Part shown: positions 28,889-53,912 of the stretch, one piece after another
How the letters are laid out: every line of letters starts with the position of its first letter
Numbering within the stretch: the stretch's first letter is position 1
Assembly: GCA_036336855.1 (NCBI GenBank)
Contig: JAYZFI010000014.1
Coordinates: 44,734-108,733 of the forward strand
Direction of reading: 5' to 3'
Length of the DNA: 64,000 nt
Origin: Candidatus Latescibacterota bacterium
GTDB taxonomy: Bacteria > Latescibacterota > UBA2968 > UBA8231
Made by a program: the position numbers and the translations under genes
Notes under the pieces: model-generated
What the model was told of the DNA's origin: nothing
What the model saw: only the letters and a program-made list of their open reading frames with translations
Databases searched by the model: none

Positions 28889-29069
28889 GTCAGGCCACAG
28901 CTGTCCCACGATCGTCTCTGCACATTGGCGCAGCACGGTCTGCGACTGGGAAACTGCACGGCGGCAGCGGCTTCTCTGCGGGCAGCTGTCAGACTCGATT
29001 CCACCAATCGGGTCTTCCGGCAGTCCCACCGTCGAAGGATGTGACGACTCTCACCCACAGGCGAAAACC

Positions 29070-30317
29070 ATGAGCTTGAATCACGCGCCTTTCTTGATTC
29101 GGGAAATCCGGAGTCAACGGCTCAACGTGCCCTTCCACCCGCGCAGCGCTCACACCGTGGATGTGCGCGTGCCCACTTGGTCGGTTGTCGATCTCTATCG
29201 TGTGACGCTGAGCTCAGGAGCGGTGGGGATCGGCGAGACCATCGACAACTACACCTTCGGCACGATCAGCTGTGAGCGTGCCCAGGCCCTGGTCGGTCGC
29301 AACGCCATGGAGCTGTTGTGGGACGACAGCTTGGGTGCAGGCGTACAGATGGCGCTGTTCGACGCCGTGGGCAAGACGGCAGGAGTGCCCTGTCATCGTC
29401 TCATGGGAGTGCAGCACCGGGAAACATGCCCGGTTTCGTGGTGGGCTCAGGATATGCCGCCGGAGTTGTGGGCGGCGGAGGCGCGTAGCGCCGTGGAGCA
29501 CGGCTTCACCACTATGAAGGTGAAGGCGCGTCCCTGGTTTGACATTGACGCCCAGCTGGCCGCGGTGTCCGACGCCGTTCCCGACTATTTCCGCCTCGAC
29601 GCTGACTTCAATGGACTGCTGCTCGGAGTCGACCACGCCGCCCACATCATCGGATCCCTGGAAGAGAAGTATCCCGTACTGGCGATTGTGGAATCGCCGA
29701 TTCCGCAGGAAGACGTTGCCGGCAACGCCCTGCTGCGGAGCAAGGTTCGCAGTCCAATCGCCATGCACTTCGGCAATCCGCCCGCGATGACAGCGATTCG
29801 CGGGGGTGTGTGCGACGGCTTCGTAATCAGCGGTGGCGCGGGTCGGGTGATGAGTCAGGGGACGCTGGCCGAACACGCGAGCATGCCCTTCTGGCTGCAA
29901 TTGGTGGGTACGGGGCTCACGACAATCTGGAGTTGCCACCTGGGCTCGGTGCTGAAGCAAGCGCGCTGGCCAGCCATTCCCGGTGTCAACATCTACGAGC
30001 ACACTCTGGTTTCTCTCGAGTTCTCGGGAGGGCATCTACGTGTACCCAAAGGCCCTGGGCTGGGCGTGGAACTCGACGAGGAGGCTATCGCTCGCTTCGA
30101 GGTAGCGGCAGATTTCCAGAAGCAACTGCCAAGAGAGATCCACACGATTCATTGGCCCGACGGCCGCCAGGATCATTACCCGGACGGCAGCTATCGTCAG
30201 GACTTTCTCGAGGGTAAACTACATCCTGGGTTCCTCCCCGGCATCCACACTGATCGAGTCCTCGACAACGGCAGTGCCGAGTTCGACAAGCACTGGCGAG
30301 AGCTGTTCGCTAGGTGA
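29070..30317 (+). CDS. enolase-superfamily enzyme (mandelate racemase / muconate lactonizing enzyme subgroup)
   Basis: 415 aa. KxK (TTMKVK), metal ligands (LDADFNG, ESPIPQED) and capping domain. Stop overlaps the GT-C start. Confidence 0.75.
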   Translation: MSLNHAPFLIREIRSQRLNVPFHPRSAHTVDVRVPTWSVVDLYRVTLSSGAVGIGETIDNYTFGTISCERAQALVGRNAMELLWDDSLGAGVQMALFDAVGKTAGVPCHRLMGVQHRETCPVSWWAQDMPPELWAAEARSAVEHGFTTMKVKARPWFDIDAQLAAVSDAVPDYFRLDADFNGLLLGVDHAAHIIGSLEEKYPVLAIVESPIPQEDVAGNALLRSKVRSPIAMHFGNPPAMTAIRGGVCDGFVISGGAGRVMSQGTLAEHASMPFWLQLVGTGLTTIWSCHLGSVLKQARWPAIPGVNIYEHTLVSLEFSGGHLRVPKGPGLGVELDEEAIARFEVAADFQKQLPREIHTIHWPDGRQDHYPDGSYRQDFLEGKLHPGFLPGIHTDRVLDNGSAEFDKHWRELFAR

Positions 30318-32728
30318 ACCGCATGGCCGTCGGCGGCGTGCTGCTGCTCGCCTTTCTATTGCGAGTCTGGGGCCTGCTGTCGGGGAATCTTGTCCCCCAC
30401 CCCGACGAGATCTTTATGGTCATCTACCCGCTGGGCCTATTCAGCGGCGACCTCAATCCCCACCACTTCCACTACCCCAACTTCCACTTCTACGAGCTCG
30501 GCCTCGTCTACGGTCTGCACTTCATCGTGCAGTACTTATTCGGAGAGGGGCGCTCCCTGATCGATTGGGCGGCACATCACTTCTTCTGGGGTGCCGAGTC
30601 CATGATGGATGTGGCTCGCCTGATCGGAGTTGCTTACTCGATGGGAACGGTGGCATTAGCGGGATTGCTGGCGCGGGAGCTGGCAACCTGGCGGGGCCAT
30701 TCGGGCAGCGCTGAAAGGTGCGACATTGGCCAGACAGCGGTAGCCACCTTCCTGGCGATGCTACTGATGGCAGTGAATGTTCTGCACGTTCGGCAGTCGC
30801 CGATCGCCTCAGTGGACGTGCCTCTTGCGTTCTGGTTCGGCATGGCTACTTGGGGAGGCTTGCGGCTGCTCACCAGGCACGAGGTGCGTGACTATCTGAT
30901 CGCCGGAACACTGGTGGGACTCTCCGCGGCTTGCAAGTACCCCGGCGTGATGTCATGTGCTGCGGTGATGACTGCCCACCTGATTGCAAGGCGACGTGTC
31001 CTGGACAGCCGTCTCTGGCTGGCAGGCCTGGCATCGATCGTCACTTTCTTAGCGCTCTCTCCCTATATCGCTCTCGACTTCGAGACCTTCAGGGCTCATT
31101 TCCTGCATCAGATCGTGCATGTGGAGGAGGGGCGCGACTTCATCCCAGCGCCCTTCTATCACCACCTGTGGATCAGCCTGCGCTTGGGATCAGGCCACCT
31201 GGTCTGGGTGGTTTCCCTTGCCGCATTCGGAGTCGCGCTCTGGGAACGAAGATCGGCTCACCTGGCCGTGGTGGCACCGATCGTCTGCGGCTATGCTATG
31301 GTCAGTTGGGGAGAGCTTGTCTTTTTGCGCTACGCGTTGCCCCTCCTGGCTCTGCAGGCCGCGCTTTCCGCGGATCTGGTGGCTCGTTTTCTCTCGTGGG
31401 TTCCCGTCCGTACCCCGCAGCTGAAGTGGGCCCCTTACGTTTGTGCCCTCTTGCTCACGGCGGAACCGCTGCACGAATCCCTGCACACGGTACGCTTGCA
31501 GTCTATGGCTGACACTCGCCGACAGGCGCGGGCGGATCTGACCGAGATAATTCCCGATGGCAGCGTCTGCTGCAACTTCGGCGGATGGGCGGGCGATGTA
31601 CCGCTCTGGACGTACGAGGAGCTGTGGTGGCGCTCCGCGCGGTTCGTGTCGCGCTTCGGCATGCAACAGCTCGCTGACGCGATTCCGGATTTGACGGCGA
31701 ACCGGCCGGACGAACCCTTCGTAAGCTACGCCCTGCAGGGGCGCAATCGCCATCTCAGCGAAGGATCGATGGAGCTGTTGCACGGTCGCGAATGTCGCTA
31801 CGTGCTGATGCATCGACATTCGCTGGTATATTCCGCCGTCGATTCCGGCTTCGTGCCCCAACTCGAGCGCATCGCCGAACGTTTTGCCGTCTGGGGACCG
31901 CCGATCGCTGAAGATTCTGCCCACTACGATCCAATGGACGGCTACTATTTGCCTTTCGACGGGGGCAGAAGTGTGGCGCGGACGGGGCCGACGATTGAGG
32001 CGTGGAGGGTTCGTGGTTACGAACGACGCTCGAATCGGCCCGACAATCCGTTTTCGCAGGCCTTCGCGGTGTGGGCGGCTGTGCTCATGCGCGAGGGCAG
32101 ACCCAAGGATGCGCGCGTCGCCCTGGAGGCCGCGCGAGTTTTGGAGCCCAAGAGCCCGTACGTTGCCATGTTTCTTTCCGCCTGGGAAGGCGAGAACGGC
32201 GATCTCGCACAAGCGTTGGAGATGGCCCAGTACGTTGCAGAGGGTGCGCCCTGGCTGACTGGGGCTAAGACCCACTACGGGCGCCTGCTCCGTCAAGCCG
32301 GACGGCTCGCCGAGGCGGAACGTCAGTTACTCCAGGCGAGAGGTCACAATCCCATGCAGGGCGAAGTTTGGCACGAGCTGGCAATGTGCTATTTCGAGAG
32401 TGGCGCCTATGCGGAAGCGGCGGAGGCTTGGACGCGAGCCATTGAATTGAGACCGACGCGGGCAGACTACTCCTTCAACCTTGCCTACACCTACCTGGAG
32501 TATCTCGACGCGCCCGAGCGGGCGGTGGCACCGCTTCGCACCGCGATGGCGAAAGGTCACGATGTCACTGACGCGCAGATCAAGCTCGCACAGGCTTATC
32601 TGAAGACAGGAAATCGAGCCGAGGCGATGCGGTGGTACGAGGAAGCCCTCCTGGGCAATCCGGACGAGGAGCAGAAGTCAGACCTTGCAACGGTCCTTTT
32701 GCAGCTAAATAGGGAAAGCTCGTTGTAG
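30314..32728 (+). CDS. ArnT/PMT-like GT-C family membrane glycosyltransferase fused to a C-terminal TPR domain (paralog 1)
   Basis: 804 aa. About 11-13 TM helices. First-loop HPDE motif (LVPHPDEIFMVIYP) as in the ArnT LPDETRY and PMT DE motif. C-terminal third shows TPR repeats (WHELAMCYFESGAYAEAAEAWTRAIEL...). Confidence 0.75.
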   Translation: MNRMAVGGVLLLAFLLRVWGLLSGNLVPHPDEIFMVIYPLGLFSGDLNPHHFHYPNFHFYELGLVYGLHFIVQYLFGEGRSLIDWAAHHFFWGAESMMDVARLIGVAYSMGTVALAGLLARELATWRGHSGSAERCDIGQTAVATFLAMLLMAVNVLHVRQSPIASVDVPLAFWFGMATWGGLRLLTRHEVRDYLIAGTLVGLSAACKYPGVMSCAAVMTAHLIARRRVLDSRLWLAGLASIVTFLALSPYIALDFETFRAHFLHQIVHVEEGRDFIPAPFYHHLWISLRLGSGHLVWVVSLAAFGVALWERRSAHLAVVAPIVCGYAMVSWGELVFLRYALPLLALQAALSADLVARFLSWVPVRTPQLKWAPYVCALLLTAEPLHESLHTVRLQSMADTRRQARADLTEIIPDGSVCCNFGGWAGDVPLWTYEELWWRSARFVSRFGMQQLADAIPDLTANRPDEPFVSYALQGRNRHLSEGSMELLHGRECRYVLMHRHSLVYSAVDSGFVPQLERIAERFAVWGPPIAEDSAHYDPMDGYYLPFDGGRSVARTGPTIEAWRVRGYERRSNRPDNPFSQAFAVWAAVLMREGRPKDARVALEAARVLEPKSPYVAMFLSAWEGENGDLAQALEMAQYVAEGAPWLTGAKTHYGRLLRQAGRLAEAERQLLQARGHNPMQGEVWHELAMCYFESGAYAEAAEAWTRAIELRPTRADYSFNLAYTYLEYLDAPERAVAPLRTAMAKGHDVTDAQIKLAQAYLKTGNRAEAMRWYEEALLGNPDEEQKSDLATVLLQLNRESSL

Positions 32729-32738
32729 AGGCTTCCGT

Positions 32739-33275
32739 TCAGCGGACGAGACGAGCAACTTCTTTGAAGGCCGGATCTTTCGCGTCCCGCAGTAATTCGA
32801 AGAGAGCCATTTCCACCGAAGTAATGCTCGTCCCCACTTCCGCCATACGCCGAAGCCCCAACCGGCAGTTGCTCTCCGTTCGCGAAGAGACCGCGTCCGA
32901 GACCACCTCAACGGCAAAACCGGCGGCGAGAAGGTCGCGCGCTGTCTGATACACGCAAACGTGGGATTCGATGCCCACGATGAAGACAGTTTCGGCTTCC
33001 GTCTTTCGCAAGTCTACGAGGAATTGCTCCGCTCCACAGGCACTGAAGCTCGTCTTGGCGATTGGTTGAAGACCTGCCAACAGCTCAGCGATCTCGGGAG
33101 CCGTCGGCCCGAGACCCTGGGGGTATTGCTCCAGCCATAGGGTGGGAATCTCCAAAGCTCGCACCCCGCGCAGGAAGATCTGCAGCTGCCGGTACAGGTT
33201 GTCACGCTCATACATCAGGTCGGCGAGCTTACCCTGCACGTCGATAACGACGACGGTCGACCGGTCCCGTTTCAC
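32739..33275 (-). CDS. isochorismatase-family cysteine hydrolase
   Basis: 178 aa. D-K-C triad context (VVIDVQ, AKTSFSAC, GIESHVCV). Confidence 0.85.
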   Translation of the reverse strand: MKRDRSTVVVIDVQGKLADLMYERDNLYRQLQIFLRGVRALEIPTLWLEQYPQGLGPTAPEIAELLAGLQPIAKTSFSACGAEQFLVDLRKTEAETVFIVGIESHVCVYQTARDLLAAGFAVEVVSDAVSSRTESNCRLGLRRMAEVGTSITSVEMALFELLRDAKDPAFKEVARLVR

Positions 33276-34054
33276 ACGCTCTGCTCACGATGATATCTTC
33301 GCACAGCGCCCGCGCCGCGCAGGCGGATCCGAATCATGTCGATGGGGTCCTGCGCCAGGCAGCGCAGGGGGTTGATCGTCGAACCCGGCGCGTTCTTCCA
33401 GGCAACCAGGACGAAAGCGATGCGCAGGTTCAGGCGGTGGGCGAAGTAGAAAATCTCCACGTCAATGGTACCCCCGTTGATTTCTGACAGAGAGAAGATC
33501 TTGCGGGCCGCATCTCGCGTGAAGACCTTGAACCCGCACTGGCTGTCGACGACCGCTTGGCGGAACACGATGAGGTGGGCGAGCCAGAGAAAGCCCAGGC
33601 CCATGACCCGTCGCGCCCAGCTTTCACGGGTCTCCACGGTTCGCACACCTGCGGCGACGTCGTAGCCCTCGTCAATGCGGGCCAGGAAATTCTCGAGGTT
33701 CTCGATGCGCGTGGAGTGGTCGGCATCCATGAAGATGATGCGCTCGCCGCAGGCTTCGAGGCAGCCCCGGCGCACGGCAGCCCCTTTGCCCTGGTTCTGC
33801 CCCTGTGCCAGCACCCGTAGCGCGGGCCAGTCCGCGGCAATCCGGGAGACTTTTTCTACGGTGTCGTCGCGGCTGCCATCATCGACGACGATGACCTCAC
33901 AGGTGTAGTCCTGACGGTTCAGATACTCCTTGCATTCACATAGGGTGCCCTCAATGCGGTGTGACTCGTTGTACGCCGGGATGACGATGGACAGGTCGAC
34001 GCTGTCGCTCAAGACTCGAACTCCACCGTCATCACCACATTCGAGCACTGCCAA
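33272..34054 (-). CDS. GT2 polyprenyl-phosphate sugar synthase (DPM1/ALG5/ArnC-like)
   Basis: GT-A fold motifs LSIVIPAYNE, VVDDGSRD, QGKGAAV and DADHS (DxD-type). No C-terminal TM helices, so DPM1-like. True start probably at an internal GTG, since the ORF 5' end overlaps the upstream methyltransferase by 46 nt. Confidence 0.85.
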   Translation of the reverse strand: MAVLECGDDGGVRVLSDSVDLSIVIPAYNESHRIEGTLCECKEYLNRQDYTCEVIVVDDGSRDDTVEKVSRIAADWPALRVLAQGQNQGKGAAVRRGCLEACGERIIFMDADHSTRIENLENFLARIDEGYDVAAGVRTVETRESWARRVMGLGFLWLAHLIVFRQAVVDSQCGFKVFTRDAARKIFSLSEINGGTIDVEIFYFAHRLNLRIAFVLVAWKNAPGSTINPLRCLAQDPIDMIRIRLRGAGAVRRYHREQSV

Positions 34055-34764
34055 CGAAAGAACGGCACCCGCTCAATGATGTGATTGAATAGAATGAGAG
34101 GCTGTAGAAGAGGTTTGGGGGTGCCTCCGGGCAAGGGAAAGAGGAAAGGCCGAATCCGGAAGTCGCGCAGGGGGCCGGCTTTGGCAAAGAAGCGCCGGTA
34201 CTGGCGGGGAGTGTAAGAGCGTTCCCCTGTGGCACGATGCCCCTCGGTCTGCTCCATGAGCTTGCGACCGACGCTCAACCCGTTGGATTCGGTCAGGAAC
34301 AGTCGACCCCGAGAGACGCGGGCCATTTCTCGCGCCATAAGAAAGGGATCGGACACGTGGTGGAGGACATCGTAGGAGATGACGGCATCGAAACTGCGGT
34401 CACGAAACGGAAGGTGCAGGGCATCGGAGGAAAGGCTTGGCAGCCCCACGGATCGTAACCATCGAGCCCCTTCCGGAAAGATCTCCGATGTGGTATACCG
34501 AGAGACGCACTCCGGATCACGATCGAGGACGCGTCGCGGAACCTCGCCGTTCCCCGCACCTACCTCGAGAAAAGTGAGGGCACGGTCTTCACCGAAAGTC
34601 TCGAAGAACAGATCGACGTAGCGGGGAATGGCAAAGGCTGTGGAGAGGTCACCCAACAGCCGCGTCCGCCAGCTTTCGTCTTGGGAGTGAAAGCGGGTCC
34701 AATCTACCTCTGCGTCGGACTGGGGCCTGTTATCGCTCACAACCAACCCTGCTGACGGGCCCAC
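34009..34764 (-). CDS. class I SAM-dependent methyltransferase
   Basis: 251 aa. Motif I LEVGAGNG and post-I/II acidic residues (AVISYDVLHHV). Confidence 0.8.
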   Translation of the reverse strand: MGPSAGLVVSDNRPQSDAEVDWTRFHSQDESWRTRLLGDLSTAFAIPRYVDLFFETFGEDRALTFLEVGAGNGEVPRRVLDRDPECVSRYTTSEIFPEGARWLRSVGLPSLSSDALHLPFRDRSFDAVISYDVLHHVSDPFLMAREMARVSRGRLFLTESNGLSVGRKLMEQTEGHRATGERSYTPRQYRRFFAKAGPLRDFRIRPFLFPLPGGTPKPLLQPLILFNHIIERVPFFRWQCSNVVMTVEFES

Positions 34765-35753
34765 TGCACGGCAGTGCGCATTCCCGCAGAGATGCCCGTC
34801 TGTGGGTCAAACCCCAATTCCCGGCGGGCTCGATCGTTACGGCACCCCATATGCCGAGTGCCCTCACCGGCGACATGGATCATCATGGAGTACAGGCCGA
34901 ACGCGGAGAGGCCCCGATCGAGCCAGTGACAGAGCTGTGCACCAAAACCCGGCAGGTAACGGGGCCGTACGTGAGCACCTTGGGCCTCACCCATTTCCCG
35001 GAGCACTTGAGCCCAGTCATAGATCTCGTTGTCAGCGATGAAGTAGGTGCCGCCGGCGGCAACGGGAAGCACCAAGGCACGACCCACGGCGTCGATGAGA
35101 TCGTCGATATAGATCATGCTCACCCGATTGTGTCCATCGCCTAGAATGGGAGGCCGCCCTCCGCCGGCAAGTTGGTAGGCCCGTAGTTGGCGGCGCGGGA
35201 AGAACGGACCATAGAAGGTCGTCGGCCGCAGCACTACTCCCTCTGTGGAGGAGCCCTCCAGACGCTCCCATAGAGCTCGCTCACCCCGCAGCTTGCTGCG
35301 ACCGTAGTGGCTCCTGGGCTTGGGTGGGTCTGTCTCTCGCATATCCAAGGTGGCGGAACCAAAGCCGGCGGCAGCATTGCTGCTGATGAAGACCAGTCGC
35401 TGAACGCCTGCCTGCACCGCAAGGTCGGAGAGATTGCGACAGGCATCACCATTGATCTCGTAGAGCTTCCGAATTCGTCGGGGATGAATGATGCCGCCGG
35501 CGTGGAGGACAAGCTGAGCACCCGACACAGCCTTTTCGATCACCGCTACATCGCGGAGGTCACCCTCGACAATCTCATCTACAATCGGCAGACGAGAATG
35601 CTTGGAGTAACCCGGAGCAACGAGTGCGCGCCAGCGATAGCGCGATAGCTCCTTCGACCAGTTGCCGGCTGTGCTTCCTGCTTGGAGCAGGCGCAGCAGG
35701 TGTTCGGTTAACCAACCCGGATAGCCGGTCATCAGCGCCAAGGGCGCCGTCAC
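34737..35753 (-). CDS. NAD-dependent epimerase/dehydratase (extended SDR)
   Basis: 338 aa. N-terminal Rossmann and a YxxxK-type region. Typical nucleotide-sugar epimerase/dehydratase length. Confidence 0.8.
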   Translation of the reverse strand: MTAPLALMTGYPGWLTEHLLRLLQAGSTAGNWSKELSRYRWRALVAPGYSKHSRLPIVDEIVEGDLRDVAVIEKAVSGAQLVLHAGGIIHPRRIRKLYEINGDACRNLSDLAVQAGVQRLVFISSNAAAGFGSATLDMRETDPPKPRSHYGRSKLRGERALWERLEGSSTEGVVLRPTTFYGPFFPRRQLRAYQLAGGGRPPILGDGHNRVSMIYIDDLIDAVGRALVLPVAAGGTYFIADNEIYDWAQVLREMGEAQGAHVRPRYLPGFGAQLCHWLDRGLSAFGLYSMMIHVAGEGTRHMGCRNDRARRELGFDPQTGISAGMRTAVQWARQQGWL

Positions 35754-35786
35754 TGGCCATCTCCCACTAAACTCATTCGCGACAAG

Positions 35787-36932: not shown

Positions 36933-36937
36933 GATCG

Positions 36938-38311: not shown

Positions 38312-38324
38312 TGTGCTCTCTTTG

Positions 38325-39650: not shown

Positions 39651-39653
39651 AGC

Positions 39654-40985: not shown

Positions 40986-41115
40986 TTGACTTCGTTAGGA
41001 GGGAATTAGAAGGGCGGCAAAGATACGCGACCCTGCTCTCGGGTCAATCAGCCTGGGTACAACAACAGTGACGCCCTAGGTTCTTCCACTTCACCGAGCC
41101 CGTACGGAGAGGAAC
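40986..41115. promoter_or_regulatory. divergent intergenic control region between the two operon arms of the sulfatase/GT-C locus
   Basis: 130-bp gap between divergently oriented sulfatase genes. Contains direct repeat TAGGAGGG-aat-TAGAAGGG and the palindrome CAATTG. GGAGAGG SD sits before the plus-strand ATG at 41116. Confidence 0.3.
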
Positions 41116-45056: not shown

Positions 45057-47545
45057 GTTCACACTGGCGCCTGGCTCTGCTCAGTGTCCTGCTCCTTGCC
45101 ACGGGTCTTCGCCTGGTCGGCTGGCAGCGAGGCGATACGGATTTTCTCAAGCCCGAGCAGGCGAGAAGCGGTCTGCAGCGCGCTTTCCACTCTTTCCATC
45201 CTGACGAGAACACTCTAATCAGAGCGGGGGCGCAGATGAGCTCCCCTCTCGATCCTCCACTCACCGCGTACGGCCTTCTGCCAATCTACCTCTCGCGCAT
45301 GGCGACCGATCTTGGCGGCTGGCTCACCGGCGTGTCCAGCTACACAGGCAGTCTTGAAAGCCATCGTCAGGATGTGTTTTCCGTCAGGCTGCTGTCGGTC
45401 GCTGTCTCCATCGCGGCGCTACTCGCGCTCTATACCATTGGCCGACGACACTTTGGTGCACCGTCGGGTGTTCTGGCAACTGCACTCGCCGCAGCGCCCC
45501 CCCTCTTCCTACAGACCGCCCACTTTTACACAGTCGATGGGGTTTTTGCGTTACTCTGCCTGGCAACGATCGGATCCGTCCTGCGAGTCGATGAGCGCTC
45601 TGGGCCCCTCTGCTACACACTAACAGGTGTTCTCGTGGGTCTGACAGCGGCTGTTCGGCTCAACGGCCTGTCTCTGGGAATCCTTCTCGTGGCGACGCAC
45701 CTATGCCGGCGCACCCCTAACTCGCGGGCATTCGGCCGCGCCTTGTTGCAGCCGTCGCTTTGGCTTGCCGGAGCTGCCACCGTTGTGACCTTGCTTGCGT
45801 TGATGCCGTATGTCGCCGTCAGCCCCGAGCTGTTGTGGCAAGAGAACAACACCAACGACTTCAGTTATTCCGTAGGCGTGGCGGATGGACGGATCTTGCG
45901 GCCATGGTCCCTGGCAGACACACACACACCGCCATATCTGCACTACCTGACCAATCTTCTTCCGCTCAGCGTTGGATGGCCGCTGGCTATTGCTTTCATC
46001 GTGGCTCTGCCATCAGCTGTGGCGACAGGAGGTCGGAGTCGCTGGTTGCTGCTGGCGGCAACGGCGTTACTGTTCGTGCCTGTCGGGGCGTTACACACAA
46101 AGCACGTCCGTTATCTGCTGCCGGTATTGGCTCCTCTCACACTCTTGACTGCCGATATGTTTGTACGTCTGCAGACGGGACAGGTAGCTATCCGGCGTCT
46201 GACAGCCAGAGTGTTGCTGATCGGCGTTCTCTCTGCAACCCTCGTGGAGGGAATCGCCTTCGCGCACATCTACACCGTTGAGGATGCCCGTCTACAAGCG
46301 GCCCGCTGGATTCAGGGGGAAGTGCCGTGGGGGACTCCCATCGGTGTCGAAACGGGCGGCTTTTCCATGAGGGGACAGGTGAGCGAGGAGGTCTACCCCG
46401 TACGGACACTGAACACGAGCTCGATCTTCTCCACACGCGGACATCTAACCTGTCAATCCGTGGCATCCTACATGGGAGCACGATTGCAGTCTGCACAGTA
46501 CGTTGCTCTCCTTGACGTCAATCGCTATCAGCAGTACGTGGGAGCGCCGGTGATCTATCCTGGACTGGCACGGTTTTATCGGGACTTTATCGCCGGAGAG
46601 CTGGGGTTTTCACTGGTGCGCACATACAAGCGCAATCCTCAGTTGCTTGGTCTCAAGATGAGCGACGATGGTGCCGAAGCTTCCTTCCTCGGCTACGATC
46701 ATCCCAGAGTGCGGATCATGGCTAAGGATCCAGGCTTCGAAGCTCGGTTTGTGGCCTGGGAGGGCGCCCTTCCCTCGCACGAACATTGTGGAGACGAAGT
46801 CGTCTTCGATCTCGTTCACCACATCAAGAGCGGATCCTATGAAGAAGGTTTGCGGCTGGCCCTGCAAAATTCAGCGCGTCACCCGCAGAGCCTCATCACA
46901 TTCATAACCGCCCATCTGTACGGTCTGCTCGGTGAGACGGAGCTGCAACAGCAATTCCTAGATCGATGGGCTGACACCTACACGGACAAATCCCTGAGCG
47001 CGTTCCTGCTACCCTGGGCGAATTCCAGTTCTCTTGTCTTGGCCGGTCTACCAGAACTCGGCGTACAGGCATTGAGATTCGGGTGGCGAAAAAGGGGCGC
47101 GTTCTCGGACGACAAGGCGAACATGGCTGCCTCGTACAGGCATGTTAGTGAGCTCTTGCTGAGTGTGGAAGAGGGTACCCTCGCTGAAGAGGCGACTCTG
47201 ATGGCGCTCGATATCAATCCTAGCGTCGAAGGTTATAACCGAGCTGCGGAAATGCTACTGTCTCGGGGAGAATACGGGCACGCGGTGGCTCTCTGGGAAA
47301 GATCTCTTCAGGATCAGGAGCAGATCGGAGTCCGGTGGCAGCTGGGCAGAACTGCGGAGGAGCGGGGCGACTGGGAGCGCGCTGTTCGTCACTTGCTCCA
47401 TGCCGTATTCCTAGACGATCAGATATCGTCAGACCGTCGAACTCTTGAGCTCGATAGGCTCACGCGTATCGCTGAGCACAATGGCCTAGCCGATCTGGCG
47501 CGAAAAGTCCGAGCGCAGCACGAGTCCAGGCAGGCACCCCTGTAA
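45053..47545 (+). CDS. ArnT/PMT-like GT-C membrane glycosyltransferase with C-terminal TPR domain (paralog 3)
   Basis: 830 aa, TTG start overlapping the preceding stop. Collinear with paralog 2 (GWQRGDTDF, FHSFHPDE, YTVDG, IYTVEDARLQAARW). TPR tail. Confidence 0.7.
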   Translation: MSSHWRLALLSVLLLATGLRLVGWQRGDTDFLKPEQARSGLQRAFHSFHPDENTLIRAGAQMSSPLDPPLTAYGLLPIYLSRMATDLGGWLTGVSSYTGSLESHRQDVFSVRLLSVAVSIAALLALYTIGRRHFGAPSGVLATALAAAPPLFLQTAHFYTVDGVFALLCLATIGSVLRVDERSGPLCYTLTGVLVGLTAAVRLNGLSLGILLVATHLCRRTPNSRAFGRALLQPSLWLAGAATVVTLLALMPYVAVSPELLWQENNTNDFSYSVGVADGRILRPWSLADTHTPPYLHYLTNLLPLSVGWPLAIAFIVALPSAVATGGRSRWLLLAATALLFVPVGALHTKHVRYLLPVLAPLTLLTADMFVRLQTGQVAIRRLTARVLLIGVLSATLVEGIAFAHIYTVEDARLQAARWIQGEVPWGTPIGVETGGFSMRGQVSEEVYPVRTLNTSSIFSTRGHLTCQSVASYMGARLQSAQYVALLDVNRYQQYVGAPVIYPGLARFYRDFIAGELGFSLVRTYKRNPQLLGLKMSDDGAEASFLGYDHPRVRIMAKDPGFEARFVAWEGALPSHEHCGDEVVFDLVHHIKSGSYEEGLRLALQNSARHPQSLITFITAHLYGLLGETELQQQFLDRWADTYTDKSLSAFLLPWANSSSLVLAGLPELGVQALRFGWRKRGAFSDDKANMAASYRHVSELLLSVEEGTLAEEATLMALDINPSVEGYNRAAEMLLSRGEYGHAVALWERSLQDQEQIGVRWQLGRTAEERGDWERAVRHLLHAVFLDDQISSDRRTLELDRLTRIAEHNGLADLARKVRAQHESRQAPL

Positions 47546-47607
47546 CGGTTCTTGACGCTCAACAAACACCCAGTATTTCGTACAGGCACTGTACAACGGA
47601 GACCCCG

Positions 47608-49254
47608 ATGAATGGAGCCGACACCTTCACTGCCGCCCTGCGTGCCCACGATGTCGAGTGGGTCAGCACGTTGTGCGGCCATGGGCTCAACGAAGTGTAC
47701 GCCGCTTGCGAGCGCACCGGATTGCGCATAGTCGATACGCGCAATGAACAGACGGCCTCGTATATGGCAGAGTGCTGGGGCCGGCTCAGCGGCAAAGTCG
47801 GCGTCTGCGCAGTGAGCAGTGGCGTCGCTCATGCCAACGCACTGAGTGGCATCGCCAACGCCTACTTCGATGGCGCTCCCATGTTGCTGGTGACCGGCAG
47901 TGGTCCGCTCTCCACGGCGGGCAAGGGTCACTTCCAAGATTTCGACCAAGTGGCACTGGTGCAGTCGGTCTGCAAGTACGCCCGCACCATCGACGTGGCC
48001 GAGCGTATTCCGGAGATCGTACACGAGGCCATGGCGACGGCGGTGAGTGGTCGCCCCGGGCCCGTGCACTTAACCTTCCCCACGGATATGCAGGAACAGA
48101 TGGTGGCGGACTCCACGCCTCCCTCACCGCAGCCCGATAAGGCTCGGCCGATCCTGCCGTCGGATGATGCCGTTCGGCAGGCGGCGCGCTTGTTGGCGCG
48201 CAGTGAACGTCCCCTAATGATCACCGGGAGCGGCGTGTTCTACGCCTCGGCGGGAAAGGCCGTCGCGGACTTTGCGGCTGCGTACGCCGTGCCGTTTGCC
48301 ATTCCCATCTGGGATCGGGGTTGTGTGGCTCAGCCCCTGCCGGAATACCTCGGCGTCGTGGGCGCCGCAAGTGGCGGACCGCGTCTGCTGGAGGACGCAG
48401 ATTTAATCTTGCTGCTGGGAGCCGCTGCGGACTACCGAGTAAGCTACATGCAGGCGCCAGCCATCGACGTGCAGACCCAAGTCATTCGTGTCGATGTCGA
48501 TCCCGATCGCCTACACCATATGGGTCGGGCCACTCTCTCCGTGCTGGCTGATCCCGCCATGTTCCTGCAGCGTCTCATCGACGTGTGCGCGAAGGAACAG
48601 ATCGAAGGTTTCGAAGACTGGCTGCACGAAACGCAAAGGCGCAAGGAGGAGTTCAGTGCGGCGATCCGAACCAGCGGCCATGGCGGGTTGGATGCGCTCC
48701 AGCTGTGCGCGGCTTTGGACGAAGCACTGCCCGAGGACGCCGTCGTCGTAATCGACGGCGGTAACATTGGCCAGTGGGTGCATCAGACGTTGGGCCGGGC
48801 CCGATATCCGGAATCCTGGCTCACCTGTGGCGCCAGTGGCGTCGTCGGCTACGGGATCGCAGGGGCCATGGCTGCACGGGCTGGCTTCCCCCAGCGTCCT
48901 GTGGTTGTCATCTCCGGGGACGGCTCGGCGACTTTCAACCTCACCGACCTCGAACGCGCTGTTCGGCAGCAGCTGCCCTTCGTGATGATTGTGGCCGACG
49001 ACGAGGCCTGGGGGATCACAGTCTCCGGCCATCGCCAACACTACGGCAAGGCGATGAGCAGCGAACTCGGCCCCGTGGACTTCGCCGCCGCCGCTGAGGC
49101 TTTCGGTGCCATCGGCGCCCGCGTGGAGAGCTGCGAGGAGCTGATCCCGGCTGTTCGCCGTGGAGTCGCTGAGAGTCGTCCCGTTGTCATCCATGTGCGA
49201 ATTCCCGGCGGCATGCCGGGTGAGCAGGGCGCACACTCGGAGGCGTTGACATGA
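47608..49254 (+). CDS. thiamine-diphosphate-dependent enzyme (acetolactate-synthase / 2-ketoacid decarboxylase-like)
   Basis: 548 aa. N-terminal Pyr domain (VSTLCGHGLNEVY..., TRNEQTASYMA), central domain, C-terminal PP domain with the ThDP motif GDGS...N (ISGDGSATFNLTDLERAV). Confidence 0.85.
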   Translation: MNGADTFTAALRAHDVEWVSTLCGHGLNEVYAACERTGLRIVDTRNEQTASYMAECWGRLSGKVGVCAVSSGVAHANALSGIANAYFDGAPMLLVTGSGPLSTAGKGHFQDFDQVALVQSVCKYARTIDVAERIPEIVHEAMATAVSGRPGPVHLTFPTDMQEQMVADSTPPSPQPDKARPILPSDDAVRQAARLLARSERPLMITGSGVFYASAGKAVADFAAAYAVPFAIPIWDRGCVAQPLPEYLGVVGAASGGPRLLEDADLILLLGAAADYRVSYMQAPAIDVQTQVIRVDVDPDRLHHMGRATLSVLADPAMFLQRLIDVCAKEQIEGFEDWLHETQRRKEEFSAAIRTSGHGGLDALQLCAALDEALPEDAVVVIDGGNIGQWVHQTLGRARYPESWLTCGASGVVGYGIAGAMAARAGFPQRPVVVISGDGSATFNLTDLERAVRQQLPFVMIVADDEAWGITVSGHRQHYGKAMSSELGPVDFAAAAEAFGAIGARVESCEELIPAVRRGVAESRPVVIHVRIPGGMPGEQGAHSEALT

Positions 49255-50231
49255 ATCTCCCTTCTGAGGACTTCGAGTCTGTCCCCCATACTCGGCTGCA
49301 CGACTTCGTCGTGTCCGCCACTACTGAGGTGGGATTGCCGGAGGTACGTGCCCGGCTACTGGCGGACATGCTCATCGGCAACGATCTGCGCGGCGTGTTC
49401 AGCCACGGCACTGTGCAGGTGGCGACCTACGCCATCTTGATGCGGGATGGGACCTTGAATCCCCAGCCCGCTATCAGCGTGGTGCAGGAGACGGACGTGA
49501 GCGTGCTCATCGATGGCGATGGAGGCTTGGGTTACTTCCCCGCCCACGAGGGCACGCAACGCGCCATCCTAAAGGCTAAGGAGCGCGGCATGGCGGTCAT
49601 GATGACCCGTAATCACGGTCACTTCGGTGCCGCCGGACTGTACTCCAGGATGACCCCGGAACACAACTTGATTACCTATGTAACCTCCGGGGTGCAGTTG
49701 CACCTGAAGCCAGGAGACAAGATTTACTCTGCCGCCGGCGGGTCCCCCATGTCCTTTAGCACTCCCGCCGGCGAGGAAGCGCCACTGGTGCTCGACTTCG
49801 GGACTATGCATGACCTCTACGCCAGCAGTCCCCATCGGGACGAGATCGCACGCCTCGCTCCCGGTTTGGTGCTGCGCTGCATTGGCATGGGTGAAATCTG
49901 CCAGGCTTGGGGAGGCCTGTTGTCCGGCCTGACTTTGCACGCCGATCCCCCGCGGTGGGAGTGGCCGGGGGCGAACCAGGGCTCGATGGTCATAACCTTC
50001 CGCATCGACCTGTTCCACGACCCGACGCAGTTCCGGCAGCAGATGGACGAATACGTGCGCGCCGTAAGTGAGCTGGACCCCCTTGAGGGTTTTGAGCAAT
50101 CCTATGTGGCCGGCGGCGTCGAAGCCGATCGCGAGGTGCGATTCCGGGAGGAGGGCGTTCCCGTGGGCGTTGAGCACCGAAAGGCGCTGGAGGGATTGGC
50201 GAGCCAGCTCGGTATCGACGCACCTTTTTGA
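49251..50231 (+). CDS. Ldh_2-family (malate/L-sulfolactate/ureidoglycolate dehydrogenase-type) 2-hydroxyacid dehydrogenase
   Basis: 326 aa. ATGA overlap with the ThDP enzyme. Ldh_2 signatures (GNDLRGVFSHGTVQV, NHGHFGAAG). Confidence 0.8.
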   Translation: MNLPSEDFESVPHTRLHDFVVSATTEVGLPEVRARLLADMLIGNDLRGVFSHGTVQVATYAILMRDGTLNPQPAISVVQETDVSVLIDGDGGLGYFPAHEGTQRAILKAKERGMAVMMTRNHGHFGAAGLYSRMTPEHNLITYVTSGVQLHLKPGDKIYSAAGGSPMSFSTPAGEEAPLVLDFGTMHDLYASSPHRDEIARLAPGLVLRCIGMGEICQAWGGLLSGLTLHADPPRWEWPGANQGSMVITFRIDLFHDPTQFRQQMDEYVRAVSELDPLEGFEQSYVAGGVEADREVRFREEGVPVGVEHRKALEGLASQLGIDAPF

Positions 50232-50260
50232 TTCGATATCCGTCATTCAGAGGCGATCCA

Positions 50261-50422
50261 ATGTTGGTAGGTATCTCTCCGCTGTTGAGCCCGGATCTGC
50301 TGTCCATTCTCTGTCGAATGGGTCACGGTGATGCGACCGTGCTCGCCGGCGCCCATTTCCCCGGAGAGACAGCGAAGCACGGTAATATTAATCTGAAGAA
50401 GGGAGTGTCCCAGGTATCATGA
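50261..50422 (+). pseudogene. internally deleted remnant of L-fucose mutarotase (FucU/RbsD family)
   Basis: 53-aa ORF. N-terminal 35 aa (MLVGISPLLSPDLLSILCRMGHGDATVLAGAHFP) match FucU (E. coli [34 protein letters not shown]). C-terminal GETAKHGNINLKKGV matches the FucU C-terminus GERAKYGNILLKKGV. The roughly 85 central residues are missing in frame. Stop overlaps the start of the next gene (ATGA). Confidence 0.5.
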
Positions 50423-51441
50423 GCCAGATCTATGAGCCCGTGGCTGTACCGCGAGCGGACCGTTACCGAGTCTCGGTGGCGGACTATAAGAGCTATCAAG
50501 AGAACGGTTTCATAGTGGTAAAGGGCTTGGTGCCGGAGGCGGAGCACGCCGAGTTGCGGCAGCACGCCATTGACATCTTCGACGGCAAGACGCCGGTAGA
50601 AGGGGTGGAGTCGCCTGATCCGCAGGCGACGCCCCAGGAGCGGCAGGTGCGCATGACCCGAGTGCATATGCTGCACCGCGTTGACGCCCTGAGCGAGCGA
50701 TTCCTACTACACCCCCGGGTGCTCGACGTACTGGAAATCCTCATCGGTCCCGACGTGCTGGCGTTGCAGACCATGATGTTCTTCAACGCGCCCGGATCGG
50801 GAGGTCAGGGCTGGCACCAGGACGCTTACTACATCACCACTTACCCGGAAACCCTCATCGGCGCTTGGTTGGCCCTAGAACGGGCCGACGAGGGCAACGG
50901 CTGTTTGTGGGTGGCGCCGGGTTCGCACAAGGAGCCGATCCATCCCGATGCGGGCCGGGGTGCTCTGGTGCACACCAAAGGGGGATTCTCCGACGCCGAT
51001 CTCGTCACCGGGATTAGCGATCTTGACGATGAAGTGAACACTCTGTCTCGAGTCGCCCGCCAGCATGAGCCCAACATGCCGGTGGAGGTGCACGCCGGAG
51101 ATGTCATCTTCTTCCACTCTCACCTGTTGCACCGCTCGCATCCCAACCCATCTGACGCGCGATGGCGCCGAGCTTTCGTCTCCCACTACTGCAACGCCCG
51201 TTCGTGGGTGCCGTGGAACCACGGTGCCTCCTTCGAGGGGGACGCCGCCAACTACCTGCACATATTGGCGCGAGGCGCGACACAACTGCCTTTTGCCAAG
51301 CCGCGATTCGACACCCCCTGCGCCGCGCTCGAGGATTGGGAACCGACCGGACCCCAGCAGGTAGTTGCCAGCGGCGGCGACATGGAGATGCTGCCGGCGG
51401 GGACATCGGTATCGTTGGGTGAGGAGGGCCGGGTCGAGTGA
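50419..51441 (+). CDS. phytanoyl-CoA dioxygenase (PhyH) family Fe(II)/2OG oxygenase
   Basis: 340 aa. Strong SD AAGGGAG upstream. PhyH pattern (YQENGFIVVKGLV, WHQDAYY, HSHLLHRSHPN). Confidence 0.8.
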   Translation: MSQIYEPVAVPRADRYRVSVADYKSYQENGFIVVKGLVPEAEHAELRQHAIDIFDGKTPVEGVESPDPQATPQERQVRMTRVHMLHRVDALSERFLLHPRVLDVLEILIGPDVLALQTMMFFNAPGSGGQGWHQDAYYITTYPETLIGAWLALERADEGNGCLWVAPGSHKEPIHPDAGRGALVHTKGGFSDADLVTGISDLDDEVNTLSRVARQHEPNMPVEVHAGDVIFFHSHLLHRSHPNPSDARWRRAFVSHYCNARSWVPWNHGASFEGDAANYLHILARGATQLPFAKPRFDTPCAALEDWEPTGPQQVVASGGDMEMLPAGTSVSLGEEGRVE

Positions 51442-52803: not shown

Positions 52804-52830
52804 GCTCAGATCTTCTCCTGCTCACTCCTG

Positions 52831-53886: not shown

Positions 53887-53912
53887 GGAGGGAGTGCCTC
53901 CGATCCGGGCGG

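Follow-up and report, generated by a model that had tools for sequence, protein, structure and literature searches.

The Arn pathway comprises ArnA, ArnC, ArnD, and ArnT. In the Rhizobium Rgt system, rgtE encodes a bactoprenyl-phosphate GalA transferase, and rgtD and rgtF encode GalA transferases (PMC7663294). The Streptococcus mutans Pgf operon, which serves protein O-glycosylation, encodes the GT-A enzyme PgfS, the epimerase PgfE, and the GT-Cs PgfM1 and PgfM2 (PMC12041528, PMC5856776). From Latescibacteria SAGs, loci for glycosaminoglycan, ulvan, or rhamnogalacturonan utilization have been inferred that combine a lyase with GH88/GH105 enzymes and S1 sulfatases (PMC4454575).

The locus described here lies in a 64,000-nucleotide stretch of Candidatus Latescibacterota DNA (the window). 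Around its core, genes of two classes are intermixed inside shared operons, in both arms. One class combines a GT2 of the polyprenyl-phosphate-sugar synthase type with one or more methyltransferases and a sugar-tailoring enzyme, either an SDR or a split transketolase accompanied by a TylF-type methyltransferase. The other comprises three formylglycine sulfatases, of which two are Tat-exported and one is cytoplasmic, together with an enolase-superfamily dehydratase, an isochorismatase-like hydrolase, and an Ldh_2 protein, to which related loci add a cytoplasmic PL26-like protein.

As in Pgf, a single locus encodes a polyprenyl-phosphate-sugar synthase of the GT2/GT-A type, an SDR epimerase, and a pair of GT-Cs, and PgfS is the top NCBIfam match for both versions of the GT2 (82 bits in the window and 238 bits over the full length in the related locus L013, both under the cut-off of 500). 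In contrast, PgfM1 and PgfM2 are YfhO-type GT-Cs without TPR, whereas those of the window are PMT_2/GT39-like with TPR; Pgf also lacks sulfatase, GH88-like, and enolase genes, is Gram-positive, and has known adhesin acceptors. The gene content likewise resembles Rgt and Arn, in which a nucleotide sugar altered by an SDR is loaded onto polyprenyl phosphate by a GT2 and then transferred in the periplasm by an ArnT-type GT-C. Relatives by structure or sequence include ArnT and ArnC, and the ArnD hydrolase, which works on a lipid-linked sugar, may be compared with the co-operonic isochorismatase-like hydrolase. The uronic acid carried by Rgt would fit the uronate flavor of the neighboring genes. 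Unlike Rgt and Arn, the locus has no lipid A/LPS context and no detected ArnE/F- or GtrA-like flippase gene, and it features TPR domains and tandem paralogues. Compared with eukaryotic and actinobacterial PMTs (GT39) and the TPR-bearing TMTC proteins, the window GT-Cs have an alpha/beta periplasmic domain instead of a MIR domain.

Formylglycine sulfatases and a GH88-related hydrolase are shared with the utilization loci, as are PL26-like and PL22 proteins in relatives. However, the window has no SusC/D or other importer, no backbone-cleaving or secreted lyase, and no regulator; the hydrolase, which falls under the GH88 Pfam threshold, shares a cytoplasmic location with the PL26-like protein and one sulfatase; and GT2 and GT-C genes are interleaved, which is unusual for such loci.

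Architecture of the locus

The features are collected in Table 1. A preliminary description placed two strings of genes on either side of a 130-bp gap (40986-41115), and the ORF map agrees with it for every gene listed, for the 33-nt (35754-35786) and 62-nt (47546-47607) gaps within the arms, and for the 10 nt (32729-32738) between the converging GTC_A and isochorismatase genes. The 4-nt start/stop overlaps were given as ATGA or GTGA. This is correct for GTGA at 42615, where the cytoplasmic sulfatase gene overlaps GTC_B, and for ATGA at 49251 and 50419, but the overlap at 45053 is TTGA. The resulting TTG start of GTC_C agrees with NCBI protein MEE2657490.1 ("glycosyltransferase family 39 protein"), to which GTC_C is 100% identical. 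Pfam and NCBIfam profiles back the assignment of two MR_MLE proteins, three PMT_2 proteins, the isochorismatase, GT2, Methyltransf_11, and extended SDR proteins, three PF00884 sulfatases, the ThDP enzyme, Ldh_2, PhyH, and the FucU remnant.

Table 1. Genes and other features of the locus, in window coordinates.
Feature	Coordinates	Strand	Evidence
Aconitase; with MR1, the syntenic backbone	26207-28888		
MR1, divergent enolase-superfamily protein	29070-30317	+	MR_MLE_C 79 bits, N domain below cut-off (Pfam)
GTC_A, third GT-C/TPR paralogue, converging on the minus arm	30314-32728	+	PMT_2 33.8 bits; strong TPR_2/TPR_19
Isochorismatase-family hydrolase, final minus-arm gene	32739-33275	-	PF00857 94.8 bits
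GT2, candidate DPM1-like polyprenyl-phosphate-sugar synthase, soluble type	33272-34054	-	PF00535 107 bits
Class I SAM methyltransferase	34009-34764	-	Methyltransf_11 48.7 bits
Extended SDR, nucleotide-sugar epimerase/dehydratase-like	34737-35753	-	PF01370 90.9 bits
MR2, enolase-superfamily acid-sugar dehydratase	35787-36932 (ORF extends to 37073)	-	MR_MLE_C 181 bits, MR_MLE_N 66 bits
GH88-like hydrolase (unk457), cytoplasmic	36938-38311	-	Distant homology to solved UGLs; Pfam GH88 sub-threshold
S1 sulfatase 1, Tat-exported	38325-39650	-	PF00884 191 bits; CTASR, RRQAL
S1 sulfatase 2, Tat-exported, first minus-arm gene	39654-40985	-	PF00884 203 bits; CSASR, RRQAL
Predicted sigma-70-type promoter of the minus arm	41020-41047	-	TTGACC-N16-TATCTT
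Cytoplasmic S1 sulfatase, first plus-arm gene	41116-42618	+	PF00884 149.5 bits; CVASR
GTC_B, GT-C (PMT/GT39-like) with periplasmic alpha/beta domain and TPR	42615-45056	+	PMT_2 32.5 bits
GTC_C, ancient tandem paralogue of GTC_B	45053-47545	+	PMT_2 41 bits
ThDP enzyme, acetolactate-synthase-like	47608-49254	+	TPP_enzyme_N/M/C
Ldh_2-family oxidoreductase	49251-50231	+	PF02615 174 bits
FucU (RbsD/FucU mutarotase) remnant, 64 codons	50228-50422	+	Partial L-fucose mutarotase match
PhyH-family Fe(II)/2-oxoglutarate dioxygenase	50419-51441	+	PF05721 139.7 bits
Thioredoxin-TPR, Ala-racemase-N/D-Ser-dehydratase-like, and GT4 glycosyltransferase genes; co-conserved downstream block	51907-55064	-	Pfam

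Two gene starts are adjusted. MR2 most likely starts at 36932, giving 381 aa as in its homologues and PDB 4jn7, and therefore does not overlap the GH88-like gene. Given homologues of 238-239 aa, the GT2 probably starts near 33991, some 21 codons after the listed TTG.

Since the arms are divergent, they are separate transcripts. The predicted promoter of the minus arm is the sole match to its motif in the window (0.03 expected), and 13 of the 14 matches in the 4.9 Mb searched (both strands) immediately precede the first gene of the GH88-like operon. The form conserved ahead of the minus arm is TTGACC-N16/17-TATYTT. The predicted promoter also accompanies the GH88-like operon where no GT-C adjoins it (L080, L161).

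By ORF map and Pfam, the window locus holds no flippase, sulfotransferase, sugar kinase, nucleotidyltransferase, importer, regulator, or acceptor gene. A dedicated flippase (GtrA, ArnE/F) is likewise absent from 29070-51441, a region with no unassigned gap or small multi-span ORF; the closest EamA-type gene (61452-62405) lies beyond the block.

Glycosyltransferases and sugar-tailoring cassettes

The GT-C calls of the preliminary description hold under profile- and fold-based annotation. PMT_2 (PF13231) scores 33.8, 32.5, and 41.0 bits for GTC_A, GTC_B, and GTC_C against a cut-off of 26.1, and the multi-span N-terminal domain has the GT-C fold of active PMT/ArnT/STT3 enzymes, at a sequence identity to solved GT-Cs of only 10-14%. 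An acidic catalytic motif of the DE/DxD type is present in the first extracytoplasmic loop, and its HPDE residues (H48-P49-D50-E51) are invariant in 23 family members and all three window paralogues. The TPR call stands at Pfam level for GTC_A, the only one with a strong match; in GTC_B and GTC_C the repeats are seen at the profile level and in the AF2 model. A Pfam search with the periplasmic alpha/beta domain returned no match. Clades B and C are each old, and across loci the two genes overlap or stay at most 20 nt apart. GTC_A groups in a clade of its own with L034 and L050 and is found together with the GT2-MT-SDR cassette in the window, L009, L034, L050, and probably L002.

The best NCBIfam matches of the window GT2 are PgfS, ArnC, and dolichyl-P-hexose types, every one below its cut-off (ArnC, 54 bits against 529). 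Its best solved relatives are DPMS 5mlz (4e-15), GtrB 5ekp (1.5e-13), and ArnC (2e-12). The C-terminal TM hairpin of the GtrB/ArnC/PgfS subtype was not found in this protein of about 239-260 aa, which would be of the soluble DPM1-like subtype. The GT-Cs, encoded in one locus with a GT2 of the DPMS/GtrB/ArnC type, may use a polyprenyl-phosphate-linked donor and transfer its sugar to an extracytoplasmic acceptor.

The SDR best matches an HpnA-like model, below cut-off, and has 3wj7, dTDP-glucose 4,6-dehydratase, and MoeE5 as solved relatives. Orthologues of the SAM methyltransferase are 67-72% identical in L001, L002, and L009, and a weakly similar methyltransferase fills its slot in L034. The GT2-MT-SDR cassette lies between the isochorismatase and enolase genes in the window, L001, L002, and L009, and directly adjoins the GH88-like gene in L034 and L050. 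In L012, L013, L019, and L030, a second, non-orthologous cassette shares an operon with the GH88-like gene, encoding a GtrB/PgfS/ArnC-type GT2, a Methyltransf_23 methyltransferase, a split transketolase, and a TylF-type methyltransferase. This GT2 has two C-terminal TM helices, with the hairpin present in L013 and L030. In L013, the end of the GH88-like ORF runs 8 nt into the beginning of the TylF ORF. As in three-component periplasmic glycosylation systems of the Gtr, Arn, Rgt, or Pgf type, GT2 synthase and GT-C are thus encoded together in the window, L001, L002, L009, L034, L050, L013, L019, L030, and, in part, L012, and GT2 genes of the polyprenyl-phosphate-sugar synthase type are co-operonic in 10 loci.

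Sulfatases, GH88-like hydrolase, and other enzymes

The formylglycine motifs of sulfatases 1 and 2, which both have a twin-arginine N-terminus, are centered on C85 and C86; that of the cytoplasmic sulfatase, which has neither a signal peptide nor a hydrophobic N-terminus, is at C55. The latter scores 307 bits with arylsulfatase model PRK13759, under the cut-off of 481, and its best PDB match is the choline-sulfatase 7oz8 (2e-62). No FGE/anSME maturation enzyme is found among the annotated window genes.

The hydrolase, 100% identical to NCBI MEE2657485.1, had been called GH88. As a profile assignment this fails (19.7 bits against the PF07470 cut-off of 26.6, no NCBIfam hit, and PF07470 in 3 of the best 120 homologues), but the distant homology is real. 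Solved UGLs are matched by phmmer/hmmsearch (1vd5, E = 9e-11 and 5e-11; 2zzr/3vxd, about 5e-9), and D101 of the invariant HDHGF pairs with UGL Asp88; around the second catalytic Asp no alignment was obtained. As to the (alpha/alpha)6-barrel fold of GH88 enzymes, the AF2 model has a pLDDT of 71.6, with 105 residues below 50, and its top Foldseek matches are weak (5noa, "Polysaccharide Lyase BACCELL_00875", and the GH88 protein 4q88; TM 0.43-0.54). In 76 loci of other lineages (56-65% identity), the GH88-like gene is without GT-C, sulfatase, and enolase genes in every case, and its neighbors include a PRK12745-type SDR in 26 and an OYE-like flavoprotein in 15.

MR2 scores 278 bits with a galactonate-dehydratase model, under its cut-off of 311, and matches the "enolase" 4jn7 with E = 1.7e-144; its orthologues are 71-90% identical in related loci. 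Isochorismatase orthologues (52-67%) close the GH88-like operon in most loci. In plus arms, Ldh_2, ThDP, AKR, and O-MT genes come after the GT-C pair. The ThDP enzyme reaches no NCBIfam equivalog and has 59-63% identical orthologues downstream of the GT-C in L044 and L047, and Ldh_2 orthologues (57-74%) lie downstream of the pair in eight loci; solved Ldh_2 relatives are type-2 malate/L-sulfolactate dehydrogenases. Residues 12-47 of the FucU remnant align to the first 36 of the 140 positions in the L-fucose mutarotase model, and L002 has an intact 144-aa FucU gene in this position. PhyH is specific to the window, with no orthologue of at least 40% identity in any related locus. The PL26-like (PcRGLX) protein, which has no signal peptide, is encoded between the GH88-like gene and a sulfatase in L046, L047, L056, L065, L070, and L161. 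L079 encodes PL22 and an SSF symporter, the latter beside the cytoplasmic sulfatase.

Conservation and interpretation

Conserved within its lineage, the locus forms a supra-operon found in Latescibacterota and in allied MAGs that were deposited as Gemmatimonadota or Handelsmanbacteria. Its fixed core pairs a GH88-like gene, in divergent orientation, with one or two GT-C/TPR genes, with sulfatases, the enolase-type dehydratase, and the PL26-like protein frequent yet optional. The divergent pair occurs in 17 of about 43 GT-C-bearing MAGs and in five metagenome contigs (L001, L002/3, L082, L162, L163), spanning at least five architectures; about 20 related genomes carry the block. The arrangement is therefore more than chance. 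The adjacency originally proposed as conserved was that of sulfatase and GT-C. This junction is found in 13 loci, with the cytoplasmic sulfatase orthologue (59-70%) directly upstream of GT-C, and is absent from types II, III, and V; what recurs is the pairing of GH88-like and GT-C/TPR genes. In L019 and L030, the GH88-like gene stays by GT-C at about 7 kb from the enolase gene. In L013, it lies beside GT-C with an unrelated far flank (PrkA/SpoVR) and no sulfatase, enolase, or lyase-like gene within the 20.6 kb covered. In L079 and L159/L160, the GH88-like/enolase/isochorismatase operon persists without a GT-C beside it, in L161 the GT-C is about 6 kb off, and distant GT-C paralogues (L004, L006, many complete chromosomes) occur in unrelated contexts. 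The link is thus lineage-specific, neither obligatory nor reciprocal.

We tentatively read the locus as lipid-carrier-based glycosylation in the periplasm, expressed together with desulfation and acidic-glycoside cleavage in the cytoplasm, which may form one functional system for a sulfated/uronate glycoconjugate; it is the GH88-, PL26-, and PL22-type relatives that suggest a uronate. The SDR/ThDP enzymes and methyltransferase would modify a nucleotide- or lipid-linked sugar, the GT2 would put the tailored sugar onto polyprenyl phosphate, and a putative flippase would expose it. The GT-C pair, perhaps heteromeric by analogy with Pmt1-Pmt2, would then hand the sugar to an acceptor in the periplasm or envelope, which the TPR domain would hold. 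The sulfatases, GH88-like hydrolase, and dehydratase would remove sulfate and cut acidic (uronate-type) glycosides in periplasm and cytoplasm, either recycling the same envelope glycan class or processing an external glycan.

It is somewhat less likely that two unrelated functions, cytoplasmic and periplasmic catabolism of acidic oligosaccharides that carry sulfate (sulfatases, GH88-like, PL26-like, enolase dehydratase, isochorismatase-like, Ldh_2) and an independent envelope glycosylation module (GT2-MT-SDR with GT-C/TPR), adjoin through inherited synteny in a slowly rearranging neighborhood, with no common substrate or product. Aconitase and MR1 are kept beside the isochorismatase gene in L027, L046, L056, L082, and L161-L163, and the Trx-TPR, Ala-racemase-like, and GT4 block beside the locus in L001, L002, L009, L027, L034, L043, L050, L162, and L163. 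Co-conservation extends over about 30 kb, so that part of the signal is inherited synteny, and because aconitase, MR1, Trx-TPR, and the Ala-racemase-like gene have no obvious relation to the locus, slow rearrangement in the lineage explains part of the pattern. The loci without GT-C (L079, L159/L160), the independence of both families outside the clade, and a conserved promoter that belongs to the GH88-like operon alone point the same way. Against separate functions, the classes are interleaved inside operons rather than merely abutting, two non-orthologous GT2/MT cassettes share an operon with the GH88-like gene, and this gene keeps its GT-C pair when it is parted from the enolase gene and when all its other flanks differ (L013, L019, L030).

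Two single-purpose readings are weaker. That the locus is wholly biosynthetic appears improbable: the GH88-like, enolase, isochorismatase-like, and Ldh_2 proteins would tailor an unusual acidic sugar (deoxy, keto, or branched, and methylated, on a nucleotide or polyprenyl carrier) for the GT-C pair, with the sulfatases as late accessories. The operon of L012, L013, L019, and L030, in which the GH88-like gene heads only the biosynthesis-type genes of the second cassette, and the gene content of L013 would agree, as would a conservation of the GH88-like and enolase proteins (67-90%) far above that of the GT-Cs (31-46%). However, close GH88-like orthologues adjoin PL26-like, PL22, SSF-symporter, and sulfatase genes, across other phyla the family is common but unaccompanied by a GT, and no biosynthetic role of a GH88-type enzyme is known to us. 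A wholly catabolic locus, in which GT-C/TPR proteins serve uptake, sensing, or transglycosylation of an external glycan then degraded by the cytoplasmic enzymes, is very improbable. The GT-Cs are the sole membrane proteins beside a cytoplasmic sulfatase and GH88-like hydrolase in a window locus without importer, and the GT-C-less L079 has its symporter next to the cytoplasmic sulfatase; on the other hand, to our knowledge no GT-C-fold protein acts as a transporter or sensor, the fold and invariant HPDE motif are those expected of active enzymes, and the synthase-type GT2 is repeatedly co-operonic.

Gene content of the two arms

An ORF map reproduces exactly the two-arm layout and coordinates of the preliminary description, including the 130-bp divergent gap (40986-41115), the intra-arm gaps of 33 and 62 nt, and the 10-nt gap at which the isochorismatase gene converges with that of GTC_A, the GT-C/TPR paralogue outside the arms. 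The 4-nt overlaps described as ATGA or GTGA are present as GTGA at 42615 and ATGA at 49251 and 50419, but the one at 45053 is TTGA. The longest ORFs probably overstate the genes of GT2 and of MR2, the enolase-type dehydratase; with the later probable starts, their apparent overlap with the genes upstream becomes an ORF-calling artifact. The database entries identical to the GH88-like protein and GTC_C are five accession steps apart, in agreement with the gene order. A horizontally acquired island is unsupported because the GC content of the locus (0.59-0.64) is similar to that of its flanks.

Coordinates of features in the window and in two GH88-like loci of other lineages (L087, L113)
Feature	Coordinates	Strand	Remarks
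Aconitase-MR1 (enolase superfamily)	26207-30317	+	Co-conserved flank, upstream
GT2	33272-34054 (longest ORF)	-	Probable start ~21 codons later; homologues of 238-239 aa
Enolase-type dehydratase MR2	35787-37073 (longest ORF)	-	Probable start 36932 (381 aa), from homologues and PDB 4jn7
GH88-like protein, 457 aa	36938-38311	-	Identical to MEE2657485.1
Periplasmic alpha/beta domain, GTC_B residues ~400-600	43815-44420	+	Equivalents in GTC_C and GTC_A
GTC_C	45053-47545	+	Identical to MEE2657490.1
Thioredoxin-TPR, Ala-racemase-N/D-Ser-dehydratase-like, GT4	51907-55064	-	Co-conserved flank, downstream
Examples from GH88-like loci of other lineages	L113:8096-8896; L087:10173-11654		

All domain calls are confirmed by Pfam/NCBIfam with the exception of "GH88", for which the protein scores 19.7 bits, under the Pfam threshold of 26.6. 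Its homologues include solved unsaturated glucuronyl hydrolases (UGLs; E=9e-11 and 5e-11), and the UGL residue Asp88 corresponds in the alignment to D101, part of an invariant HDHGF motif. Its AF2 model is only moderate, and the structures that match it best, polysaccharide lyase 5noa and GH88 4q88, do so weakly; on these combined grounds it is referred to as GH88-like. The family is large, with at least 8,000 matches (every candidate that was scored), the best 120 of which are each at least 66% identical. The catabolic character predicted for this enzyme is well supported by PL26-like and PL22 neighbors in relatives.

The three sulfatases harbor Cys-type formylglycine motifs (CTASR, CSASR, and CVASR); two have a twin-arginine leader (RRQAL), and the third has no signal peptide. 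A predicted catabolic role is well supported by the formylglycine motifs, Tat export, and the absence of a sulfotransferase. The nearest solved relatives of GT2 are DPMS, GtrB, and ArnC, all polyprenyl-phosphate sugar synthases. MR2 is very close to PDB 4jn7 (E=1.7e-144), which was deposited merely as "enolase" and on which a literature search found nothing relevant. FucU is reduced to a 64-codon remnant (50228-50422) that matches L-fucose mutarotase over its first 36 residues only, and an intact 144-aa FucU gene occupies this position in the related contig L002. The MBL gene that follows FucU in relatives is replaced in the window by a PhyH dioxygenase gene, for which no related locus has an orthologue at 40% identity or more.

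The assignment of three proteins as GT-C stands, as all three pass the PMT_2 model (32.5-41 bits vs a cut-off of 26.1). Their first loop contains an HPDE motif that does not vary among 23 family members, and the C-terminus is TPR at the profile level. The TPR is separated from the membrane domain by an alpha/beta domain of ~150 residues with many invariant positions (Y404, E407, D408, R410, E430, N487, R488, D546, H547, P548, and the cysteines C464 and C576). A Pfam search with this periplasmic domain returned no match even at E<=1; it could serve as a second catalytic or an acceptor-binding domain. Shorter relatives of ~570 aa have the periplasmic domain and lack the TPR.

The GT-C/TPR family is rare: 1.84 billion representatives contain ~80 full-length clusters at 50% identity and, at E<=1e-30, 1,419 clusters. 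GTC_B itself has few homologues, and these are distant (45% identity at best). In a neighbor-joining tree, GTC_B-like and GTC_C-like proteins form two old paralogue clades and GTC_A a third. The GTC_B-like and GTC_C-like genes stay adjacent, overlapping or lying at most 20 nt apart, and this tight tandem of ancient paralogues suggests that their products may form a heteromer, as in Pmt1-Pmt2. A distant tandem pair (35-38% identity; L004/L005:10001-15605) occurs in an unrelated context, followed by a PF04029 (2-phosphosulfolactate phosphatase family) gene; the tandem arrangement therefore predates the link with the GH88-like operon. On L050, a complete Latescibacterota chromosome, an insert at ~11100-12700 parts the two genes and GTC_B is recovered as two separate tblastn segments; the insert may represent disruption of the pair by a mobile element.

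Conservation of the neighborhood

The two-armed locus is shared by L001 and L002/L003, the metagenome contigs closest to the window. In one arm the order is isochorismatase-GT2-MT(-MT)-SDR-enolase-458 aa-sulfatase, where MT is a methyltransferase, and in the other it is sulfatase-GT-C-GT-C-Ldh_2-(FucU)-MBL. A wider GT-C alignment scan, with one genome per species, yields 72 loci from ~43 MAGs named Latescibacterota, Gemmatimonadota, or Handelsmanbacteria, plus one "Planctomycetota". The coupling of catabolic and glycosyltransferase genes emphasized in the preliminary description recurs among them, the GH88-like gene (67-75% identity) adjoining GT-C in 17 of the ~43 MAGs, but it is not obligatory. 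In tblastn comparisons of all window proteins with the 72 loci, identities are 71-90% for the enolase, 59-70% for the cytoplasmic sulfatase, 57-74% for Ldh_2, 52-67% for the isochorismatase, and 31-46% for the GT-Cs; the cytoplasmic enzymes are much better conserved than the GT-Cs.

The related loci fall into several layouts. Type I is that of the window (also L001, L002, L009, and, in part, L008), and type I' (L027) has a single GT-C and no GT2-MT-SDR cassette. In type II (L034, L050), GTC_A converges on an isochorismatase-GT2-MT-like-SDR-GH88-like operon that diverges from GTC_B-GTC_C. In type III (L012, L013, L019, L030), the operon divergent from GTC_B-GTC_C is headed by the GH88-like gene and encodes a TylF-type methyltransferase, a split transketolase, a GT2, and a Methyltransf_23 methyltransferase, to which L019 and L030 add an 851-aa unknown and a GDP-mannose-dehydratase-like SDR. 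The type III GT2 belongs to the GtrB/PgfS/ArnC type, carries two TM helices at its C-terminus, and matches the PgfS model over its full length (238 bits); GTC_B-GTC_C are followed by two AKR, an O-methyltransferase, and an Ldh_2 gene. Type IV (L046, L047, L056, L065, L070, L161) combines a cytoplasmic PcRGLX/PL26-like protein of ~850 aa with the cytoplasmic sulfatase, followed by GT-C except in L161. In type V (L043, L082, L162, L163), aconitase(-MR1) converges on isochorismatase(-enolase)-GH88-like, which diverges from GT-C.

The reverse test, a metagenome scan anchored on the GH88-like gene, yields 80 loci, 76 of which come from other lineages at 56-65% identity (L083-L158). GT-C, sulfatase, and enolase genes are absent from all 76. 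The GH88-like gene is instead accompanied by an SDR (26 loci), an OYE-like flavoprotein (15 loci), GFO/IDH/MocA oxidoreductases, and AraC regulators, and this neighborhood looks like a very conserved small module of its own. The recurrent SDR is not KduD, since a tested representative scores 324 bits with PRK12745, above the cut-off, and 136 vs 339 with KduD; the KduD-based argument for unsaturated-uronate catabolism is therefore dropped. Within the clade, counting only loci with adequate flanks, a divergent GT-C is present in L082, L162, and L163 and lies ~6 kb off, beyond aconitase, in L161. GT-C is absent from L159/L160 and from L079, where the neighbors are PL22, an SSF symporter, and a metallophosphatase. 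The association is thus lineage-specific, frequent, and asymmetric: B/C-type GT-Cs are mostly found beside the GH88-like operon, while the operon can occur without them.

One glycan or two functions

The predicted combination of GT2, tailoring enzymes, and GT-C/TPR as a lipid-carrier glycosylation module of the PMT/ArnT type is well supported. Its parts list parallels those of Arn and Gtr. The same holds for Pgf (PMC12041528, PMC5856776) and Rgt (PMC7663294). The locus is best filed as a variant of polyprenyl-phosphate-dependent periplasmic glycosylation systems, set apart by two features: TPR-bearing tandem GT-Cs with a periplasmic domain without a Pfam match, and fusion within operons, specific to this lineage, with genes for a GH88-like hydrolase, sulfatases, and acid-sugar enzymes. 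A literature search turned up no account of such a combination of genes.

The uncultured Latescibacterota are widespread and degrade glycans from algae and detritus; we know of no work on their envelope glycobiology. A literature search for Latescibacterota glycosyltransferases with sulfatases returned nothing relevant. An in-silico study of Latescibacteria names GH88s and sulfatases among the enzymes for breaking down algal glycans, and its text contains neither "glycosyltransferase" nor "mannosyltransferase" (PMC4454575).

The tight coupling had been read as one functional system, a reading that is partly supported. That both modules act on one glycan, via synthesis plus turnover or salvage, is tentatively proposed as a reading somewhat short of even probability. 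Pure co-inheritance of two unrelated functions is rather unlikely. It would account for the retention of aconitase-MR1 and of MBL/Trx-TPR/Ala-racemase-like/GT4 in many loci, distant ones included; the conserved neighborhood spans ~30 kb and several transcription units, so part of the synteny signal must reflect slow rearrangement. However, the gene classes are interleaved inside the operons of both arms, two non-orthologous GT2/methyltransferase cassettes landed in the GH88-like operon, and in L013, L019, and L030 the GH88-like gene remains 90-110 nt from GT-C while the enolase and sulfatase genes are separated or lost.

An entirely biosynthetic locus is improbable, and an entirely catabolic one more improbable still. 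Any complete pathway is weakened because flippase, importer, sugar-activating enzyme, regulator, and acceptor genes are missing from the locus. A sulfonate (sulfolactate/coenzyme-M-like) reading, prompted by Ldh_2, the ThDP enzyme, and the PF04029 gene in L004, is rejected, as no model reached an equivalog score and the genes are inconsistently present.

A bolder reading, improbable even with its two versions taken jointly, would make the GH88-like enzyme an integral step of lipid-carrier glycosylation and not a nutritional hydrolase. It might make or trim the sugar that a heteromeric GT-C/TPR pair puts on envelope proteins; alternatively, in an "eat-and-wear" scheme, sugars of sulfated algal glycans, freed by the sulfatases and hydrolase of the locus, might decorate the surface directly. 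In both versions, a GH88-type enzyme and sulfatases would, for the first time, be seen hard-wired to a GT2/GT-C pathway. The block brings the rare GT-C/TPR family together with polyprenyl-phosphate-sugar synthases, a very conserved GH88-like enzyme, and sulfatases. A functional link would join glycan catabolism to surface glycosylation and provide a testable function for three unassigned families, namely the GT-C/TPR proteins, including their novel periplasmic domain, the GH88-like proteins of 457 aa, and the enolase of the 4jn7 type; if the link is not functional, the locus remains a clean case of a new PMT-like glycosylation module in bacteria.

A promoter in the divergent gap

The divergent gap harbors a sigma-70-type sequence, TTGACC-N16-TATCTT (minus strand, 41047->41020), the sole match in the window (0.03 expected). 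When both strands of all 4.9 Mb of DNA in the analysis are searched for TTGACC-N16/17-TATYTT, 13 of the 14 matches lie just upstream of the first gene of a GH88-like operon, at a distance of 30-80 nt (window, L012, L013, L015, L019, L030, L046, L047, L056, L065, L070, L080, and L161); loci without GT-C are included. This conserved promoter supports the prediction that the minus arm is a single transcription unit starting in the divergent gap; it is silent on co-regulation with the plus arm. In a generic promoter and terminator scan of the locus, counts are at or below chance and the intra-arm gaps contain no terminators; the specific motif is the only informative promoter signal. Its canonical -35 and -10 boxes may be notable for a lineage of the FCB superphylum.
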